DNA of 64,000 bases, from the sequence record PZ154897.1; one strand, given 5' to 3'. The stretch is from a phage. The position numbers were made by a program, and so were the translations under genes. This document shows positions 3,965-32,964 of this stretch, one piece after another. Below the pieces are notes generated by a model. The model was not told the DNA's origin. It was given only the letters and a program-made list of their open reading frames with translations, and did no database searches. How positions within the stretch are numbered: the stretch's first letter is position 1; every line of letters begins with the position of its first letter.

Positions 3965-4528
3965 TTACCATTCCAATGCTAGTTTTTTGAGTTGTTTCTG
4001 TTCTTTTACGTTCTTAGTCACTTCTTTCAAAAAATCATCCGTGACTAATCCTTTTAGTTCTTTTAATACTAAAGGTAGTTTTCCGTTTTTAGTAAGAATT
4101 GATTTATAGTTAATTGCATCATTTGTATTAACTTGATACCGTTTAGCAAGTAACTTAATAATCAATACTTCGGTGGAATCTTCAACCAGTTTTGCCCATT
4201 TACCATATCTTTTACCCCGAGGAACAGCAGCCATCAGATAATTAAAATGAGCTTCATCACTTAAACCTGATCCAATTAAATTCATAGCATATACAGCTGG
4301 CATGCACTCTGGAAATTGTGATAATGCATTCTCAACCATGTATTTTGAATAATCTTTTTGAGCAATAGAGCATTTAGTTTTATTATTAATAGCTCCAATT
4401 ATTTCAAAAAACTCATTTTCAGCTTTTTCTTTAAAAGAATCAGCAGCGGATTGGACAGCTGTCCAATCTTTAGAATACCAAGCAACTTGATGCTCGTTTA
4501 ATTGAATATCATCTTCAAATAAGCTCAT
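3965..4528 (-). CDS. 62: clamp-loader small subunit gp62
   Basis: 187 aa from [22 protein letters not shown]...; adjacent to gp44; ORF-track N-terminal extension trimmed. Confidence 0.9.
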
Positions 4529-4529
4529 A

Positions 4530-5489
4530 TCACTTCCACTGCATTTCACATGCCAATTGAATGAAAAGATATGCTAAATGTAATTCAGTATTAGCCGCAA
4601 TTCCATGATACTGGTTATTTTCACCAACAATTTCATACATACGAATAATACTTTGCGGAGTTACGCGTGTATAGATTTCTTCGGCAAGTTTACCTACGAA
4701 CCACGAATAATCAGCCGCATATTTTGGTGCTAAAGCTCTGAGTTGTTTAACATCTTTATTTTTGAGAGACTCAAGAACATCATCAATAGCACCACGATCG
4801 TTAGTAACCAGTGATAAAATACCAGCATCCAAAACACCTTTAGATGAATAACTATCGAGCTCACCAATAGTTTTACGAAAATCAGGAAAATTCTTTTTAA
4901 CCAAAGCTGCTACAACTTTCATATCAGCTATAGCAATTCCTTCATGCTTACAGATTTCAGTCAATCGACGAATCATCTGCTTCATCATTTCAATTTTATC
5001 TTCATCGGTCGGTTGACCGAACGTAATAACTCGACAGCGTGACTGAAGTGGTTTAATAATACCATCAATATTGTTAGCAGTAATAATAATACTACAGTTT
5101 GAACTATAAGCTTCCATAAAGGAACGAAGATGTCGCTGAGACTCTGCTAACCCTGAACGGTCAAATTCATCAATAACGATTACTTTTTGACGACCATCAA
5201 ATGAAGCGGCGCTGGCAAAATTAGTCAAAGGACCACGAACGAAATCAATTTTACAATCTGACCCATTCACAAACATCATATCAGCATTTACATCATGACA
5301 CAATGCTTTTGCTACAGTTGTTTTACCTGTTCCTGGAGAAGGAGAATGAAGAATAATATGTGGAATCTTACCTTTACTTGTAATAGATTTAAAGGTTTCT
5401 TTATCAAAGGCGGGAAGAATACATTCATCGATAGTAGATGGACGATATTTCTGTTCAAGAATGTGTTCTTTTTCATTTATAGTAATCAT
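4530..5489 (-). CDS. 44: clamp-loader ATPase subunit gp44 (AAA+)
   Basis: 319 aa from [22 protein letters not shown]...; Walker [11 protein letters not shown]; Walker B VIVIDEFD; SRC motif (LQSRCRVI). Confidence 0.95.
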
Positions 5490-5523
5490 AATTTCCTCAT
5501 TCAAGTTTTAGTGTAAATTATAA

Positions 5524-5537
5524 AGGGCCGAAGCCCT
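5524..5537 (-). other. AGGGC-UUCG-GCCCU tetraloop hairpin between genes 44 and 45
   Basis: agggc-cgaa-gccct palindrome in 36-bp intergenic gap. Confidence 0.5.
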
Positions 5538-5540
5538 CTA

Positions 5541-6227
5541 TTAAAAATCGTGGGTAGAATCAGCTTCAAGAGCTACTACATAATTCGCATGTTCACCTTC
5601 AAATTTAGCAGCGCCTTGTTTACCTTTTGCCCAGAGAAGAAGTTTATAATTTCCTGGTTGCATTTTCATATTTGCCATATTGATAATGAAATTAAATGTA
5701 TTTTCACCATCATAATCACCAAGAGTCAAAGAATATTTAACACGGGTCAAAGCAGAATCTTCTACTTTGTTAAAACCGTTAATTACAATTTTACCTTCTT
5801 TTACTGTGATAGCAATTGTATCAATCTGCAGACCGCGAGATACACGCAACAGCTGTTGAAGGTCTTCAGCTTTAATTTCAGTAACAACAGATGCTACCGG
5901 GAATGGAATTGGTTTATTAGGAGCAACTACTGTACTCGGATCGGCTGCTGGCCAAAAAATTGTTGAGCGAGCATCAGCAATTTTAATATTACCATCTTCT
6001 GACTGGGAAATTTCTGCATCATCATTAACTAGAGACAGAATACCGAGAAAACCGTTCAAATCGTAAATCGCTACATCAAAATCAATAACGTCAGAAATAT
6101 TTGCTTCCGCATAAGTGGTACCATTAACCGCGCGAGTCATAATAAATTGACCGGATTTAAGCATAATACCGGAGTTAATAGTAGCGAAATTTTTCAAAAT
6201 ATTCAGCGTATCTTTAGACAGTTTCAT
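5541..6227 (-). CDS. 45: sliding clamp gp45
   Basis: 228-aa ORF MKLSKDTLNILKNFATINSGIMLKSGQFIMTRAVNGTTYAEANISDVIDFDVAIYDLNGF...; size/position as T4 gp45. Confidence 0.95.
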   Translation of the reverse strand: MKLSKDTLNILKNFATINSGIMLKSGQFIMTRAVNGTTYAEANISDVIDFDVAIYDLNGFLGILSLVNDDAEISQSEDGNIKIADARSTIFWPAADPSTVVAPNKPIPFPVASVVTEIKAEDLQQLLRVSRGLQIDTIAITVKEGKIVINGFNKVEDSALTRVKYSLTLGDYDGENTFNFIINMANMKMQPGNYKLLLWAKGKQGAAKFEGEHANYVVALEADSTHDF

Positions 6228-6282
6228 GTAATTTCCTTCAATTCAAATGAGATTTAATTTTATAACTAATTTAATAAAGCAA

Positions 6283-6672
6283 TTAACGATTAAAATCAGC
6301 CGCAATTGTTTCCGCAACAAGTTGAGCAGCAACAATTAGACGTTCATCTGCATTACCGCAATATTCATCTTCAAGGCGTTCACCACATGAAGTCATAATA
6401 AATTTAGCACCGGCGTTTAGGGATTCTGTAGTATGTTTGCGCATTAGTTCAATCCATTTATTACTTACTTCACGATCGATAGCTTCATAATACGCATGAC
6501 GAGCAGGTGCAGATTTAATTTTGTTCTGAATAACTTCCATTGCGTTATCAGAAAGAGACAAAACCCATGCTCGACGAATTTTATTTTGGTTTTGTGGATT
6601 TGAATCAGAACGCACGTGTTTTGGCTGAATATCTTTTACATCAACAGTATAATTCACAGTAATTTTAGTCAT
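6283..6672 (-). CDS. rpbA: RNA polymerase-binding protein RpbA
   Basis: 129-aa ORF immediately downstream of gene 45; synteny and size as T4 rpbA. Confidence 0.7.
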
Positions 6673-6873: not shown

Positions 6874-6924
6874 AGTTCCTCCGTATAAATATGTTTATCA
6901 CTCGCTGTATCAAAAGGATATGTT

Positions 6925-7641
6925 ATGAATTATAAACTAATTTATGAAAAGTTAATCTCTAATGCTAAATCTCGAAAACTTGATTGCTATACTGAATCTC
7001 ATCACATTATACCACGCTGTTTAAACGGTAGTGATGATGCTTCAAACTTAGTAGATTTAACGCCAGAAGAGCACTATGTAGCTCATCAACTTTTAGTAAA
7101 AATTTATCCTTCTGAACCAAAATTAGTCTATGCTGCTAACATGATGACAGTTTCTACGAAATACGCTAAACGTAACAATAAAACTTTCGGCTGGATTCGT
7201 CGTAAACTCTGGGAAATAGAAAAGAATAAAGAGTTCTCCAAAGAGACACGAAAGAAAATGTCCGACGCAGTAGCTAATAAAGCAAGACTAACTTGTCCAC
7301 ATTGCGGTAAGTCTGGATTAAGCGGGAATATGAATCGATGGCATTTTGATAACTGCCCAAATCATCCCAATCCTAAAGTTAGACCGCCAATGTCTAAAGA
7401 ACACAGAAATAATATCTCAAACGGGCTTAAAGCAATCGTTCTTGAAGAAACATCCTGCGAATTCTGCGGAATGATAGGCAAGAAATGCGTTATCGCAGCG
7501 CATAGAAATTTCTGCAAGAAAAATCCAAATGGACGCAAGAAAACTGAAAAGACTGGTACTTGCGTCCATTGTGGTAAAGTTACCACTTTCGGAAATTTAT
7601 CAAGATGGCATAATGATAATTGTAAATATAAACCTAGCTAA
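6925..7641 (+). CDS. HNH homing endonuclease (mob-type) with three C-terminal Zn-finger repeats
   Basis: 238 aa; motif [30 protein letters not shown]; three repeats of C-x-H-C-G...W-H/N-x-D/N-N-C; opposite strand to all neighbours; paralog of 51510..52169. Confidence 0.8.
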   Translation: MNYKLIYEKLISNAKSRKLDCYTESHHIIPRCLNGSDDASNLVDLTPEEHYVAHQLLVKIYPSEPKLVYAANMMTVSTKYAKRNNKTFGWIRRKLWEIEKNKEFSKETRKKMSDAVANKARLTCPHCGKSGLSGNMNRWHFDNCPNHPNPKVRPPMSKEHRNNISNGLKAIVLEETSCEFCGMIGKKCVIAAHRNFCKKNPNGRKKTEKTGTCVHCGKVTTFGNLSRWHNDNCKYKPS

Positions 7642-9322
7642 TCTTAGCTAAACTAAATCTACCAACTTTTTCCATTTGAATGTGCTGACCATATTCCTGT
7701 GGGTCATGGTCTTTATGCGAAATTATGAAGAAGTTGGTATCCTTCAAACCATCTAAAATTTTAGCCACATTTTTAATACCTTCAGCATCAAATGCACCGT
7801 CATACACTTCATCAAGAAATAAACAACTTATTTTAACACCTGAAACTTTTTCAGCAATATCACGCCAAGTAAATAAAAGAGCAATATCAATTCGTGCTTT
7901 TTCACCTTGACTAAATGAAGCATAACTAAAATCTTCACGACCACGGGATTTAATTGTCTCATTAAATTCTTCATCTAATGTAAACACATAATCCGCTTCC
8001 ATTATTTTAAGATAATGGTTAATCTGCTTATTAAATAATGGAATGTACTTTTTAATAATAGCACCTTTAATACCAGAATCTTTGAGCATATCAGTCAAAA
8101 TTCCTCGGTGGTATTTTTCCATTACTAAATTAGTTTTTGTCTTAACAATTTTATCAAGTTCTTCTTGAAGCAGTGCTATTTCATCAGCATGGTCAATAAA
8201 CTCAGAAGATGCTTTTTCTATAGCCGCTTTAACCTTTTTAGCTTTATCTACCGTCGTGATTAGAGATTGCTTTTTATTGCGAATATCATTTGCCAACGTC
8301 TGTTGGGTTTTAATATTATCTCGGTATTCATCAACGAGAACTTTTAAATTATCACGATGTGTTGAAAGCTGTTCAAACGAATGCGTGCATTCAGAAACTT
8401 TATCTTTAATTTTAGAAACAACTTTATCACCGGAACTTAATTGTGACAAACAGGTTGGACATAATCCACCTTCGTGATACATATTAATGACTTTATTATA
8501 CGAGTCAATTTTTGATTTAATTAAAAATGCTTCTTGACCGATTTTATTAAATGCATCAGTCGGGTCTTCATCCAAAACAATATTAACTAATCTTTCATTA
8601 GCTTCTTCTATTTCCGATTTTAGCGTTCTAGCTTCTTTTGCCAAATCATCATACATATTCTGCAGACGAGTAAGGTTATCACCAGTTAATTTTTTCTGGC
8701 GTTCAACGTTATCATTATATATTTTAATTTGTTGGATAATACTATCTTTTTTAACATCAAGCACTTGGTTTTGTGAATTTAATTCACGTATTAGTGCTTT
8801 ATTAAGCTTATCCATTTCAGCTAATGTTCCTACCTCAAGCAGGTCTTCCACAAGCTTTCTTCGCGCAGGGGTCGACAAACCCATGAAAGGGGTATACCCT
8901 GCTGTACCAAGGACAACAATCTGCTTGAAACTGGCATATGACATTCCGATAAGCTGTTCAAATTCTGCTTGGAAATCTTTACTGCTGGCAGATTCATTAA
9001 GACGTGTACCGTTAACGGTGATTTCGAAAACGTTTGGTTTTTGTCCTCTTTTGATATAGTACTTTTTCTCATCATATTCCATCCACAGTTCAACTAAAAG
9101 TTCTTTCTTATTTGTGCTGTTTATTAATTGACCTTTCTTTACATCACGGAATGGCTTGCCAAAAAGCCCAAATGTGATGGCTTCTAACATAGTAGACTTA
9201 CCACCGCCATTTCGTCCAGTAATAAGAGTTTTTTGAACCTTATCTAATTGAATGTCAACTCCATTTTGACCAACTGACATTATATTTTTATATTTTACTC
9301 TATTAAGTTTAAATGATTTCAT
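7634..9322 (-). CDS. 46: recombination endonuclease subunit gp46 (SbcC/Rad50-like ATPase)
   Basis: 562 aa; Walker A GRNGGGKST; long coiled-coil middle; CPTC zinc hook; signature SQGE and D-loop FLDEV. Confidence 0.95.
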   Translation of the reverse strand: MKSFKLNRVKYKNIMSVGQNGVDIQLDKVQKTLITGRNGGGKSTMLEAITFGLFGKPFRDVKKGQLINSTNKKELLVELWMEYDEKKYYIKRGQKPNVFEITVNGTRLNESASSKDFQAEFEQLIGMSYASFKQIVVLGTAGYTPFMGLSTPARRKLVEDLLEVGTLAEMDKLNKALIRELNSQNQVLDVKKDSIIQQIKIYNDNVERQKKLTGDNLTRLQNMYDDLAKEARTLKSEIEEANERLVNIVLDEDPTDAFNKIGQEAFLIKSKIDSYNKVINMYHEGGLCPTCLSQLSSGDKVVSKIKDKVSECTHSFEQLSTHRDNLKVLVDEYRDNIKTQQTLANDIRNKKQSLITTVDKAKKVKAAIEKASSEFIDHADEIALLQEELDKIVKTKTNLVMEKYHRGILTDMLKDSGIKGAIIKKYIPLFNKQINHYLKIMEADYVFTLDEEFNETIKSRGREDFSYASFSQGEKARIDIALLFTWRDIAEKVSGVKISCLFLDEVYDGAFDAEGIKNVAKILDGLKDTNFFIISHKDHDPQEYGQHIQMEKVGRFSLAKIS

Positions 9323-9337
9323 TTTGTATCCAATTGT

Positions 9338-10192
9338 TCACAATGAAGAAAATTCTTTAACTAAAGCCTGTAATGAAGCCTCTATTGGATATCCATTCTT
9401 AACTAACATTTTCCTAAACATCACATGTTTAGGACGATTATATGATATCCACAATTCATACAATTTATCTTTATTATCCCAATGATAGCCTTTTCGTCGA
9501 GATGCTATATGAGCTTTTCTAATCTCCGGATTTTTCCAACTAGCAGCTACTGAATTTGATATAGCTATTTTATATTCAGGTTTTGATAAAGCAGCGCGAA
9601 CAGCCCTTTGGTGTTTAATTTTATTTTCTTCGTTATTAAACCATTCCCTTGAAGCCATTGAAATTTTTTGTTTTGTTTTAAAATTATTTAATCTTTCTTT
9701 GTTATCTTTTCTATTTTTTGCTACTGAAAAATATTTTAATGCCCTTTCTCTAGCAGCATTTCTATTTTGCGGATTTGAATAATACTGTTGAAGCCTTTTT
9801 GATATTGTGTCACTTACATCTTGTTTTATAAAACTATATTCAGCAGCTATTAAATCAACTTCGGCTAAAGATAAATTTTTATATGTTTTTCCTGACATCA
9901 TTCTATTTAAAGCATTTAGCATTTTTCCATTTTTACCTTTTGCTAATAAGAAATGTGCTTTGAAATGATTGAAATGACTTAAATTAACTAAATTCCATGT
10001 AGATTTTAAATATTCAGGAAATATTGATTTAGGAAGCACGTGATGTGCTTCCGTTTTACCTGGAGTTTTAACAGTTGAATTCATAGAAATAAAATTAATG
10101 TAAGACTTGGCGTCTTCTTCGCTCAACACTAATTTTTCAACTAATTCCTTTATTAAAAATTCATCATTAATATCAAGTTTAAAATTCTTCAC
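9338..10192 (-). CDS. HNH-family homing-endonuclease-like protein (AT-rich insert between 46 and 47)
   Basis: 284 aa; EAHHVLPKS...NLVNLSHFNHFKAH resembles the HNH motif of the mob-type ORFs; basic Lys/Asn-rich C-terminus. Confidence 0.5.
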   Translation of the reverse strand: MKNFKLDINDEFLIKELVEKLVLSEEDAKSYINFISMNSTVKTPGKTEAHHVLPKSIFPEYLKSTWNLVNLSHFNHFKAHFLLAKGKNGKMLNALNRMMSGKTYKNLSLAEVDLIAAEYSFIKQDVSDTISKRLQQYYSNPQNRNAARERALKYFSVAKNRKDNKERLNNFKTKQKISMASREWFNNEENKIKHQRAVRAALSKPEYKIAISNSVAASWKNPEIRKAHIASRRKGYHWDNKDKLYELWISYNRPKHVMFRKMLVKNGYPIEASLQALVKEFSSL

Positions 10193-10404
10193 AAAAGATT
10201 CCTTTTAATGTATCTTTTAGACCATTCTATCATATCATCATAATCTAAAAAGTATTCATCAAATTCAGCCATGCAAACAACACCTTGTGCTGCTTTTGAT
10301 GTGATATAAATTATTCCAACATATCTAGAATCTTCTTCGGTGTAATCAATATTTGCTATGAATTCATCGTTAATGTCAAATGTCGAAAACTTCACAGTAT
10401 GCAT
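10189..10404 (-). CDS. hypothetical small protein (46.1/46.2 region)
   Basis: ORF 10189..10452 trimmed to internal Met (MHTVKFSTFDINDEF...); start uncertain. Confidence 0.4.
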   Translation of the reverse strand: MHTVKFSTFDINDEFIANIDYTEEDSRYVGIIYITSKAAQGVVCMAEFDEYFLDYDDMIEWSKRYIKRNLL

Positions 10405-10639
10405 CCTTAATACAAGATACAGCCATATCTTGTAATGATTTAGGTGTGTCATTATCTAAAATGTTGAAGTTAAAAGATACAGCCCAGTCAGTGCAGACCG
10501 TGACCTTTTTAATACAATTATCTTCAACCTCTAACGGTTCAAACCAATATTCAATAATTTCTTTATGCCCAATATCATCTTTTACTTCACATTCAAAATG
10601 CTGACTCATCATAACATTTTTAAATTCATCAAAAGTCAT
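10376..10639 (-). CDS. hypothetical small protein (46.1/46.2 region)
   Basis: 87-aa ORF abutting gene 47 stop. Confidence 0.45.
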   Translation of the reverse strand: MTFDEFKNVMMSQHFECEVKDDIGHKEIIEYWFEPLEVEDNCIKKVTVCTDWAVSFNFNILDNDTPKSLQDMAVSCIKDAYCEVFDI

Positions 10640-11655
10640 TGTGTTGCCTCTACATATAACTGATTTGCATATTGAATAAGTGCTTCGCGATCAGAATCAG
10701 TGATGTCTGGAATTGCATTAATGTATTCTTCCATCAACGTCTGAAGAGATTGAACTTCAACTTCTTCGCTATCATCTGACTCGACAGAGTTATCAATCTT
10801 TGACACAACTCGTAATGAATGCACAACTTTTTCTAGTTCAGATTCGAACTTCGTTAGATTTTTGTCTACCTCAGTTACTATAACACGCACTGATAGATTT
10901 GTAAAATCTTTATAGTCAATTTTTCCCTTAAATGGATACTGAATTCGACGATGCCAGGTAGTGTTGTTTGGAATAAATTCCATTCGTTCTGTTTCTGTAT
11001 CAAACATCCAGAACCCGCGAGGGTCATTCTCGTCACCTGCAGTTAGTGTCCATGGTGTCCCAATATATCTGACGTTAGCAGCCTCAGAGATAGTATGGAA
11101 GTGACCAGACCACACCTCTTTATAAGTCTTAAGGAAATCAGGTTCAAGACCGTGAGATTTCATTCCTTTATAAAAATAAAATCCATTCAACTCCCAGTGA
11201 CCAACACAAAAAGAAGCAGATGAAGTTTTGATGTGTTCAAGAATTTCACCAGTATTTTCTTCGCACATCCAAGGAATTAAATCAATCAAACATCCGTCAA
11301 AATCTACTGTAGTAGGCTTATCATATACTTTAACATTAGGATATTTAGCCAAAAGCTCAGTAGAGGCATTTGGATGCATTACATTTTTATAGTGGAGATC
11401 GTGATTTCCTACAATAGTATGTAATGTGATTCCAACGTCATCAAGCATTTGAACTATTTCGCGAGCAAACTCCATAGTTTTATGCGTGATCGCTTTTCGC
11501 ACATCAAAAATATCACCATATTGAATCCATACAGTAATTCCGTTTTTCTTAGAATATTCTATCGCTTGCTTAATTCCATCAATTTGAATACCGCGAATCC
11601 ACTCATCATCAGCTTTAACGCCTAAATGCCAATCACCTAAATTTAAAATTTTCAT
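10636..11655 (-). CDS. 47: recombination endonuclease subunit gp47 (Mre11/SbcD-like phosphoesterase)
   Basis: 339 aa; MKILNLGDWHLG...; calcineurin-like motifs GDIFD, GNHD, GHWE. Confidence 0.95.
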   Translation of the reverse strand: MKILNLGDWHLGVKADDEWIRGIQIDGIKQAIEYSKKNGITVWIQYGDIFDVRKAITHKTMEFAREIVQMLDDVGITLHTIVGNHDLHYKNVMHPNASTELLAKYPNVKVYDKPTTVDFDGCLIDLIPWMCEENTGEILEHIKTSSASFCVGHWELNGFYFYKGMKSHGLEPDFLKTYKEVWSGHFHTISEAANVRYIGTPWTLTAGDENDPRGFWMFDTETERMEFIPNNTTWHRRIQYPFKGKIDYKDFTNLSVRVIVTEVDKNLTKFESELEKVVHSLRVVSKIDNSVESDDSEEVEVQSLQTLMEEYINAIPDITDSDREALIQYANQLYVEATQ

Positions 11656-31872: not shown

Positions 31873-32394
31873 TTATCCTTTCATTGAAGGTGTAACAGTT
31901 GTTAAATACTTAATCATAGCTTCAGCTTCTGATTTTGATAATGAAATTTCTCCATTGTTTTGACGAATAGAAATAAAATCCGGATGACGGTCACCACCAG
32001 CTTTCAAAACACACATATAAGTATCAGTTTCATCTTCAATATTTGAAATGATTGAAGCAGTTCCACATGAATGCGGTTTTTGATAAATCAATACGGCTTT
32101 TCTTCCACTGTTTGACTGTTCATAAACTTTTAACACATCAAACAAATCACTTCTTTTATCAATAGCTAAGATGTTGTTTTCATCTTCAATGTTAAATCCT
32201 TCGGATACTTCATAAAGTGTCACCCATAAATCACCTATATCGATAGTAGCATTTTCCTTTCCATGACTTTCAAGAGCATGACAAATTTTCTTGATTTCGT
32301 CATAACTCATTTTAATAATATCATCTCCTTGAATAAGGAAGATGTCATTTTTAAATTCAACACGAATTAAACCGCTTTCACTTGAAATAAACAT
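31873..32394 (-). CDS. hypothetical protein, tandem paralog 1
   Basis: 173 aa; shares EGFNIEDENNILAI / ...SKSEAEAMIKYLTTVTPSMKG with neighbour. Confidence 0.5.
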   Translation of the reverse strand: MFISSESGLIRVEFKNDIFLIQGDDIIKMSYDEIKKICHALESHGKENATIDIGDLWVTLYEVSEGFNIEDENNILAIDKRSDLFDVLKVYEQSNSGRKAVLIYQKPHSCGTASIISNIEDETDTYMCVLKAGGDRHPDFISIRQNNGEISLSKSEAEAMIKYLTTVTPSMKG

Positions 32395-32400
32395 ATTTCC

Positions 32401-32964
32401 TCACTTTGAAATCATAGTTGGAATGACAGAATCAAGATAAGTCTTTAGCGCAATAGCTTCGTCTTTGGTAAATGTGACAATATGTGATCGAAAATCGTCA
32501 ATTTGACGAATAGATACTACATCTCCTTCTTCATAGCATTTTGATACATTTAAAACAGTTTCATCATTCTGATCGCACTGATCGCAAGCGTTAGTAATAA
32601 TAGCATTGCAATTTTTAAGCCATTTTAAACTATGTTTTCTTTCATTAGAATAATAAAAATATTTAATGTAAGTTATAAAATTATCCCAATTATTAATTGA
32701 TAAGCATATTGACTCGCTTTCAATGTTAAATCCTGGGCATAAAGAATAGAAATGAATTTTATGCTCATCATTAATGCTTACAATTTTATCAGTATAAGGA
32801 TATTCAATTTGGGTTAAATGAATAATTTCGCTAGGCGTAAAATATAGCATATCATCTTCTTGCGTCAAACGATACATATTATTTACTTTTTCTATAGCCA
32901 ATTCACCAAAAAGTGAACTAACTTCTAATACTAATCGTTTCATATTAATCCTTTTTATTGGCAC
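32401..32964 (-). CDS. hypothetical protein, tandem paralog 2
   Basis: 187 aa; PGFNIESESICLSI / ...TKDEAIALKTYLDSVIPTMISK. Confidence 0.5.
   Translation of the reverse strand: MPIKRINMKRLVLEVSSLFGELAIEKVNNMYRLTQEDDMLYFTPSEIIHLTQIEYPYTDKIVSINDEHKIHFYSLCPGFNIESESICLSINNWDNFITYIKYFYYSNERKHSLKWLKNCNAIITNACDQCDQNDETVLNVSKCYEEGDVVSIRQIDDFRSHIVTFTKDEAIALKTYLDSVIPTMISK

Follow-up and report, generated by a model that had tools for sequence, protein, structure and literature searches.

Introduction

Between the recombination genes 47 and 46 of a T4-like phage, the sequence record PZ154897.1 contains an open reading frame (ORF) that is absent from phage T4. What does this ORF encode, how did it come to lie there, and how does gene 46 stay whole beside it? 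We analyzed a stretch of 64,000 nucleotides (nt) of this record, in the following called the window, which is a genome segment of a Tequatrovirus (T4-like phage). The ORF lies on the minus strand at 9338..10192 and encodes 284 amino acids (aa) from a GTG start to a TGA stop codon. A preliminary description of the window had proposed an AT-rich island between genes 46 and 47 with a divergent HNH-like endonuclease, either a separate mobile insertion or a decaying gene. From the comparison of genomes and protein families, an AT-rich cassette of 870 bp is inserted here, and the ORF on it is very likely an intact homing endonuclease gene of the free-standing T4 Mob (HNH) type, with the expression, spread, immunity and life cycle set out below.

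An 870-bp insert that captures the start of gene 46

We compared the window and the carriers T2, T6 and RB68 with the empty sites of T4, RB32, wV7, JK38, KNP5 and RB10. Anchored extraction of the locus yielded 1701 bp in carriers versus 831 bp at empty sites, and alignment by MAFFT gave a single gap of 870 columns. The insert is located between genes 46.1 and 46 (9315..10184), and its junctions are identical in the window, T2, T6 and RB68. Its boundaries are ambiguous within a 9-bp direct repeat, AAGTTTAAA. In the alignment with T4, the left copy of this repeat (9306..9314) falls in codons 4–6 of the new gene 46, and the right copy (10176..10184) in codons 4–6 of the endonuclease gene, which are the original codons 4–6 of gene 46. 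The repeat extends imperfectly to 18 bp with 14 of 18 positions identical (9305..9322 and 10175..10192). The empty site in T4 reads ctattAAGTTTAAAattcttcac, and the junctions in the window read ctattAAGTTTAAA[tgatttcat ... atatcAAGTTTAAA]attcttcac. Removing the stretch bounded by the two 9-bp repeats leaves precisely the sequence of T4.

The flanks matched 519 Tequatrovirus-type records, of which 72 contain the insert and 446 an uninterrupted site; the insert is present in about one-seventh of the T4-like phages. Carriers include T2, T6, RB51, RB68 and PP01, while T4 is without it. The survey of related T-even genomes that the preliminary description had recommended thus found one exact, polymorphic 870-bp indel. 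Together with the exact junctions and the Mob-family protein described below, it bears out the suggestion of a separate mobile insertion.

In T4, genes 47, 46.2, 46.1 and 46 are contiguous, and according to the T4 annotation the GTG start of gene 46 is overlapped by the stop codon of 46.1. In carriers, this start belongs to the endonuclease ORF (10190..10204, minus strand), which opens with the native Shine-Dalgarno sequence AAGGA of gene 46 (10200..10204), its GTG (10190..10192), both identical in T4, and its six first codons (MKNFKL), and which retains the GTGA overlap with the 46.1 stop codon. Gene 46 has a replacement start (9320..9337, minus strand), consisting of a 15-nt spacer, ACAATTGGATACAAA, followed by an ATG at 9320..9322. 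The 3′ end of the insert re-creates codons 1–6, with codons 1–3 reading ATG AAA TCA (MKS) in carriers versus GTG AAG AAT (MKN) in T4, and gp46 in carriers begins MKSFKLNR. Gene 46 is therewith a continuous 562-aa ORF that starts 15 nt past the endonuclease stop codon; its coupling to 46.1 is lost and its Shine-Dalgarno sequence is weaker (GGA). The cassette accounts for the annotated gp46 start, which is MKS/ATG in carriers and MKN/GTG elsewhere.

The insert lacks the T4 late-promoter consensus, and sigma-70-like sites are no commoner in it than in shuffled sequence. Several of the T4 mob and seg genes are likewise promoter-less, translationally coupled cassettes (PMC2988022). A group I intron- or intein-encoded endonuclease was ruled out, as gene 46 is uninterrupted, and an Rfam scan of 8800..10800 at E ≤ 1 returned no intron or other RNA.

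The base composition of the ORF is distinct from that of its surroundings. Its GC content is 28.5% compared to 34.6% for the window, placing it in the lowest 1.1% of all 855-bp windows (standard deviation 2.6%), and the GC content at third codon positions is 18% compared to 24–28% in genes 46 and 47. The whole 870-bp insert has 28.4% GC. The AT-richness relative to the neighboring recombination genes that had been remarked on earlier is therefore real, and the composition analysis recommended at that time separates the ORF from its neighbors. The same holds for the Lys/Asn-rich character and basic C-terminus of the 284-aa product in the ORF list: it contains 13% Lys and 9.1% Asn, with an isoelectric point (pI) of 9.9 for the whole protein and 10.4 for residues 131–284.

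The encoded protein belongs to the Mob-type HNH endonucleases

Profile searches matched residues 1–282 to PHROG 655, “homing endonuclease” (E = 8e-45), and the 284-aa protein to phrog_12434, “HNH endonuclease” (E = 6e-16), so the profile check proposed in the preliminary description did find endonuclease families. Using tblastn against phage genomes, we found 36.5% identity over 73% of the protein to genes annotated as mobC (E ~ 1e-22) and 29.6% identity over 83% to MobD of T4/RB3 (E = 4e-11). A profile search gathered 148 relatives, 108 of which were aligned. Pfam HNH (PF01844) was matched by 19 of these 108 (best E = 4e-7), NUMOD3 by 58 and I-HmuI_NUMOD-like by four.

The motif EAHHVLPKS...NLVNLSHFNHFKAH is located at residues 48–80 (9953..10051, minus strand) and reads E-A-H50-H51-V-L-P54 ... 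N67-L-V-N-L ... N-H76-F-K-A-H80. In the alignment of the 108 family members, H50, H51, P54, H76 and H80 are invariant and N67 is conserved in at least 90%. HNH nucleases have a general-base His in the first strand, a structural Asn, and His or Asn as metal ligands in the helix. The HNH signature of H50-H51, N67, H76 and H80 is complete in the 284-aa protein, and with this family-wide conservation the HNH-like core recognized earlier in the sequence holds. AlphaFold2 modeled the protein with a mean predicted local distance difference test score (pLDDT) of 82 over its full length and 86.5 over residues 1–115. Strands 47–51 and 68–72 and helix 73–84, all with pLDDT > 90, form a predicted beta-beta-alpha unit over the HNH motif, followed by long and basic helices at residues 109–233. 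The C-terminal half, residues ~110–284 (9338..9865, minus strand), is basic (pI 10.4) and all-helical, and is presumed from its sequence to be the DNA-binding region. Its last ~50 residues (GYPIxxSLQALVxEF) are conserved in the homologs of Mosigvirus and Gelderlandvirus. An HNH unit at 48–80 followed by a basic helical part at 110–284 fits the architecture of Mob-type enzymes, in which an N-terminal HNH domain is joined to a DNA-binding region that often has NUMOD3 repeats.

Several searches weigh against this assignment. In Pfam, the protein itself matched nothing at E ≤ 0.01, relaxing the threshold to E ≤ 1 still brought up no family of the HNH type, and NUMOD3 was not significant. NCBIfam gave no match, and sequence and profile searches of the PDB gave no significant match. 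A literature search found no paper on this particular gene. The label “divergent” was therefore fair, since the protein falls below the Pfam and NCBIfam thresholds, and its link to the HNH superfamily is indirect, through phrog_12434 and through PF01844 in relatives, because no curated HNH profile is matched by the protein itself. Our classification as a divergent endonuclease of the Mob-type HNH group hence relies on profile matches and the motif and not on the fold, for which searches gave no significant match to a solved structure. The records of N2, T2, T6-related phages and RefSeq annotate the ORF as “homing endonuclease”, and other records as “MobD-like”. The gene is a new, uncharacterized member of a well-known kind and not a new kind of system.

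Within this otherwise AT-rich gene, positions 10032..10052 form a G+C-rich inverted repeat with a 9-bp stem (GGAAGCACG tga TGTGCTTCC). Its span is precisely that of the codons for E48-A-H-H-V-L-P54, including the catalytic His pair, and on the plus strand it has a terminator-like score.

An allele of the 5′ end of gene 46 is linked to the cassette

Carriers of the insert also differ from most non-carriers in a short, hyper-divergent patch of gene 46 itself, nt 10–66 or codons 4–22 (9257..9313, minus strand). We call the version found in carriers A-type and that of the majority of non-carriers C-type. Compared to the RB32-type empty-site phages, the window shows 14 differences in the 57 nt of the patch, and the 534 nt that follow it contain five (Fisher p = 1e-11). 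Carriers and the majority of non-carriers contrast in this way within each of three genera, with identities at nt 10–66 versus nt 67–600 of 0.75 versus 0.99 in Tequatrovirus (p = 1e-11), 0.79 versus 0.987 in Mosigvirus (Fisher p = 6e-9) and 0.56 versus 0.955 in Gelderlandvirus (p = 2e-15). In all three genera the patch ends at nt 63–66.

At the protein level, the C-type reads Y-Q-N-I-M-S-V-G-G-x-P and the A-type Y-K/S-N-I-M-S-V-G-Q. The A-type patch has a cassette-like GC content of 21–22% versus 29–41% for the C-type. A-type patches without the cassette occur in T4 and its relatives (68 records) and in five Mosigviruses such as WFK. There are no cassette-linked single-nucleotide polymorphisms on the 46.1 side or past nt 66 of gene 46. 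Over nt 1–66, carriers differ from T4 at nt 1, 6–9 and 63–64 only. The A-type patches of Tequatrovirus and Gelderlandvirus are identical over nt 10–33, although the respective endonucleases are only ~43% identical. From these alignments, gene 46 nt ~10–66 is probably the target or the immunity region of the endonuclease.

Proposed mechanism and polarity of the two alleles

Based on these observations, we suggest the following course of events. The cassette sits past codon 6 of gene 46, and the endonuclease would be translated from the original Shine-Dalgarno sequence and GTG of gene 46, coupled to the 46.1 stop codon via GTGA. Being promoter-less, the endonuclease gene would be expressed from the 47-46.2-46.1-46 transcript, and gene 46 is kept whole by the 3′ end of the cassette, which brings the spacer, the ATG and the re-created codons 1–6 (MKSFKL). 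By analogy with known enzymes, the basic helical C-terminal half would bind the DNA of a co-infecting cassette-free phage, and the beta-beta-alpha-metal HNH site would nick or cut the recipient gene 46 near its 5′ end. T4 recombination repair would then transfer a copy of the cassette to the cut genome, along with the ~66 nt of gene 46 that lie next to it. T4-like genomes, which are A-type and have no cassette, would be immune survivors that arose via deletion between the 9-bp repeats or via conversion of the patch alone. The frameshifted copies of T2, RB68 and probably RB51 described below would represent degeneration, and together with the T4 state they would fit the later stages of a homing-endonuclease cycle.

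As to polarity, we lean toward the C-type (YQNIMSVGG.P) as the cleavage target and the A-type as the resistant or immunity allele. This assignment is favored because gene 46 nt 1–66 of carriers is near-identical to that of T4, the insertion barely disrupting an A-type site; because the A-type patch has the composition of the cassette; and because the C-type appears as a native sequence, conserved at the protein level and with normal synonymous divergence between genera. It amounts to a concrete target prediction at gene 46 nt ~30–66, C-type versus A-type.

The opposite polarity is the alternative that survives best, and we regard it as unlikely. Here, the A-type as found in T4 would be the cleavable homing site that the insertion disrupts, the C-type of most cassette-free phages a derived resistant variant that became common because the cassette is unable to enter it, and the T4-like sites would be uninvaded. 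The cassette has indeed been seen next to A-type sequence only, and the empty site of T4 differs from carriers by nothing more than the 870-bp indel and 2 nt. Distant gp46 homologs, moreover, mostly have Lys at position 12 (R/K-Y/W-K-N), as in the A-type and unlike Q12 of the C-type, which fits an ancestral A-type and counts against our assignment. However, with an A-type site so little altered, carriers would cut themselves unless recognition reached upstream of nt 1, and the sequence upstream differs by genus, being the 3′ end of 46.1, a short 46.1-like ORF or the end of gene 47. The low, cassette-like GC content of the A-type patch also speaks against this polarity, as does the conservation of the C-type protein across the three genera with varying synonymous sites, as for a long-standing native sequence.

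Somewhat less probable still is that the patch has nothing to do with cleavage or immunity and is either hitch-hiked donor DNA or an AT-rich, unstructured 5′ end adapted to the changed start, the real cut site lying elsewhere. The greater AT-richness of the A-type (21–22% GC) would suit such an adaptation, and so would the uncoupling of gene 46 from 46.1 in carriers with the weaker GGA Shine-Dalgarno sequence. The free-standing endonucleases of T4 usually cut hundreds of bp away from their own genes (PMC2988022), another point against our assignment, as the cut site could lie elsewhere here too. Against this stand the common end of the patch at nt 63–66 in three genera and the recurrent switches Q12 to K/S and G19 to Q, which mRNA structure would not require. 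T4 and the five Mosigviruses, furthermore, have the A-type with an ordinary coupled start and no cassette, and the lack of cassette-linked polymorphisms on the 46.1 side or past nt 66 is contrary to plain hitch-hiking. We retain the linked patch as the candidate target or immunity region.

The same niche is occupied in Mosigvirus and Gelderlandvirus

In our alignment, the closest homologs outside of Tequatrovirus share 42–43% identity with the window protein; tblastn gave 45%, with 88% of the query covered. They belong to Mosigvirus and Gelderlandvirus, are co-linear to the C-terminus and are encoded next to gene 46 on its upstream side. The gene was found in 10 of about 155 records of Mosigvirus (AV112, F2 and others), where it replaces codons 8–79 of 46.1 and its ORF begins with the first seven codons of 46.1 itself, MTKTDYE. 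In Gelderlandvirus (Melville and others), it was found in five of 16 records, replaces a short 46.1-like ORF and overlaps the stop codon of gene 47. Judged from these sequences, this endonuclease lineage has repeatedly captured the start codon of a resident gene.

The 47-46 interval varies also among Gelderlandviruses that lack the endonuclease gene: Salmonella phage S16 has a short 46.1-like ORF between 47 and 46, while in Salmonella phage STML-198 genes 47 and 46 overlap each other.

In the window, residues 6–39 of the endonuclease (L-DINDEF...EED..Y...; 10087..10192, minus strand) resemble residues 9–36 of gp46.1 (F-DINDEF...EED..Y...). The likeness comprises 12 identical positions out of 34 and reached E = 4e-4 in BLASTP, a value for this single comparison. 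The element DINDEF is found at residues 7–12 of the endonuclease and 10–15 of gp46.1, with 15 of 18 nt matching between the codons, in the same register after GTGAAG. This likeness may be a relic of an earlier stage, at which the cassette replaced or became fused to 46.1.

We put forward, as a tentative and rather doubtful extension, that the mobile unit may be a composite of the endonuclease gene and an immunity version of the 5′ end of gene 46 of ~66 nt. Such a unit would have settled in the same niche in three genera of the Tevenvirinae and captured resident start or first codons on each occasion (those of 46 in Tequatrovirus and of 46.1 in Mosigvirus, with the gene 47 stop overlap in Gelderlandvirus). 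If true, an old, trans-genus dimorphism would be maintained in the first beta-strands of the Rad50-like gp46. This nuclease is thought to resect the breaks on which homing depends.

Intact and frameshifted copies

Copies in the window and in T6 are intact, and the full-length ORF of the window is identical or nearly so in N2, BYEP01, GRNsp7 and T6; the 284-aa form represents a cluster of 85 sequences. In T2, two nt are lost from a T4 run (A4 in the mRNA) at 9581..9584 of the window, and in RB68 one nt is lost from a T6 run (A6 in the mRNA) at 9664..9669. Both deletions shift the frame and eliminate the C-terminal half. The alignments of RB51 and RB68 are each one base shorter than the query with the same record coordinates, and RB68 is annotated with two ORFs; RB51 probably shares the 1-nt loss of RB68. 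For the window copy, synonymous and non-synonymous codon differences to other copies were 8:3, 10:3 and 8:5, and with this excess of synonymous differences the copy is, by this measure, under constraint. The earlier alternative of a decaying endonuclease hence does not apply to the window, whose copy has an intact ORF with its catalytic residues and shows more synonymous than non-synonymous differences; it does apply to T2, RB68 and, by inference, RB51.

That the window ORF is itself a decaying or inactive remnant, which does not cut and is kept only through linkage, is very improbable: the frameshifts of T2 and RB68 with the one-base loss that RB51 appears to share, the divergence beyond Pfam and NCBIfam and the fold searches without significant match would agree with it, but the ORF is full length and (nearly) identical in four other phages, keeps every family-invariant HNH residue, shows the synonymous excess and represents the 85-sequence cluster.

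A preprint (PMC12633550, 2025) proposes slippage-prone contingency loci in T2 and T4. Possibly, slippage in the A4 and A6 runs switches endonuclease expression on and off, in which case the frameshifts would not mark simple decay. Intact and frameshifted copies can be seen at this one locus together with sites that would be cleanly deleted or never invaded, so that all stages of the homing-endonuclease life cycle would be present.

Phage Ac3 (OK040907.1, 34360..35216) was considered as a divergent allele and set aside. Its sequence is 71% identical over the full length, with the coordinates of RB51 and features described as “similar to hypothetical protein”, and the record is probably of low quality.

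Resident neighbors and further observations in the window

Over 9000–10900, the window matches the Escherichia phages N2 and BYEP01 at 100% identity and many others at 98–99%. Along the minus strand, gene 47 (10636..11655) is followed by gene 46.2 (10376..10639; T4_Y03C, Pfam PF25721, E = 1e-43), gene 46.1 (10189..10404; DUF5487, Pfam E = 2e-48), the endonuclease ORF and gene 46 (7634..9322). The stop codon of 46.1 overlaps the endonuclease start. Gene 46, invaded at its 5′ end, encodes a Rad50/SbcC-like recombination nuclease subunit with the Pfam domains SMC_N, AAA_23 and Rad50 zinc hook; gp46 comprises 562 aa in the window versus 560 aa in T4. The preliminary description had placed the ORF between 46 and 47; the actual slot is 46.1/46 and not directly 46/47. 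The two small overlapping ORFs that it had assigned to the island exist, but they are the conserved T4 genes 46.1 and 46.2, which are resident in T4 and lie outside the insert.

The window contains another Mob-like HNH homing-endonuclease ORF, which encodes 238 aa and lies at 6925..7641 on the plus strand, between 45.2 and gene 46. It matches PHROG 655 (E = 1e-68) and Pfam HNH (E = 0.007) and has C-terminal Cys-rich repeats. It is convergent with gene 46, and the 3′ ends of the two share 8 bp. The T4 late-promoter consensus, TATAAATA, is present in exact form 34 nt upstream of this ORF (6884..6891, plus strand). This ORF is present in RB32 (“similar to mobB”) and RB68, and T4, T2 and T6 are without it. 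With the 238-aa ORF at one end and the 284-aa ORF at the other, gene 46 thus lies between two HNH endonuclease genes in the window.

An additional insertion between gene 45 and rpbA, suspected from the annotation of N2, was rejected, since the order 44, 45, rpbA, 45.2 in the window is normal. Near genes 44/45, the coding sequence table of N2 (ON645936.1) lists a “hypothetical protein” of 888 bp and a “DNA polymerase” of 687 bp; it disagrees with the ORFs in window positions 4500..6300, probably due to an annotation offset in that record. The only other stretches of the window with equally AT-rich 855-bp windows are at ~20000 and ~32000–32500; these may hold further mobile or foreign genes.

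Comparison with known systems

The closest known counterparts of the window gene are the Mob endonucleases of T4 (MobA–E). Like MobD, with which it shares 29.6% identity over 83%, it belongs to PHROG 655 and combines an N-terminal HNH part with a distinct basic C-terminal region, and like the T4 mob genes in general it is free-standing between conserved genes and sporadically distributed. It differs from mobD in its locus (46.1/46 instead of nrdC.11/mobD.1), in being only ~30% identical and in its absence from T4. The genes mobE, mobA and mobC are promoter-less, use upstream transcription and overlap the upstream stop codon (PMC2988022), and the cassette in the window resembles them in all three respects. 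Unlike the T4 mob genes, the window ORF begins with a start and six initial codons captured from the gene it has invaded, whose 5′ end it re-creates. Its candidate target also lies within ~66 bp, compared to hundreds of bp for the free-standing endonucleases of T4.

The MobD-like genes of Melville (Salmonella, Gelderlandvirus) and of F2, AV112 and pEK20 (Escherichia, Mosigvirus) share with it the C-terminal GYPIxSSLQALVxEF, the niche and the linked allele at the 5′ end of gene 46. There, however, 46.1 or a 46.1-like ORF is replaced and the endonuclease gene runs 14 nt into the start of gene 46, whereas in the window 46.1 is retained and the junction is inside gene 46.

In the “intronless homing” of MobE (nrdA/nrdB), SegF and SegG, a neighboring gene is cut in phages lacking the endonuclease, flanking markers are co-converted and carriers are protected by target differences, accompanied by localized marker exclusion (PMC2988022; PMC2790892). 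The same mechanism is proposed here for the window gene. Activity, cut site and homing were demonstrated for MobE, SegF and SegG, whereas for the window gene they are only suggested by comparative sequence.

I-HmuI and I-TevIII combine an HNH domain with an extended, modular DNA-binding tail, as is presumed for the window protein, and NUMOD3 (58 of 108) and I-HmuI_NUMOD-like (four of 108) occur among the relatives of the window protein. Those two enzymes are intron-encoded and have NUMOD3 and helix-turn-helix modules; the window gene is not intron-encoded.

Measured against these systems, start-codon capture, the niche shared by three genera and the linked patch make a neat yet unsurprising case. 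In the classic cases T4 excludes the markers of T2, and the element in the window has the reverse distribution. It adds to the T-even set a well-delimited, uncharacterized Mob-type endonuclease that is present in T2 and T6 and absent from T4.

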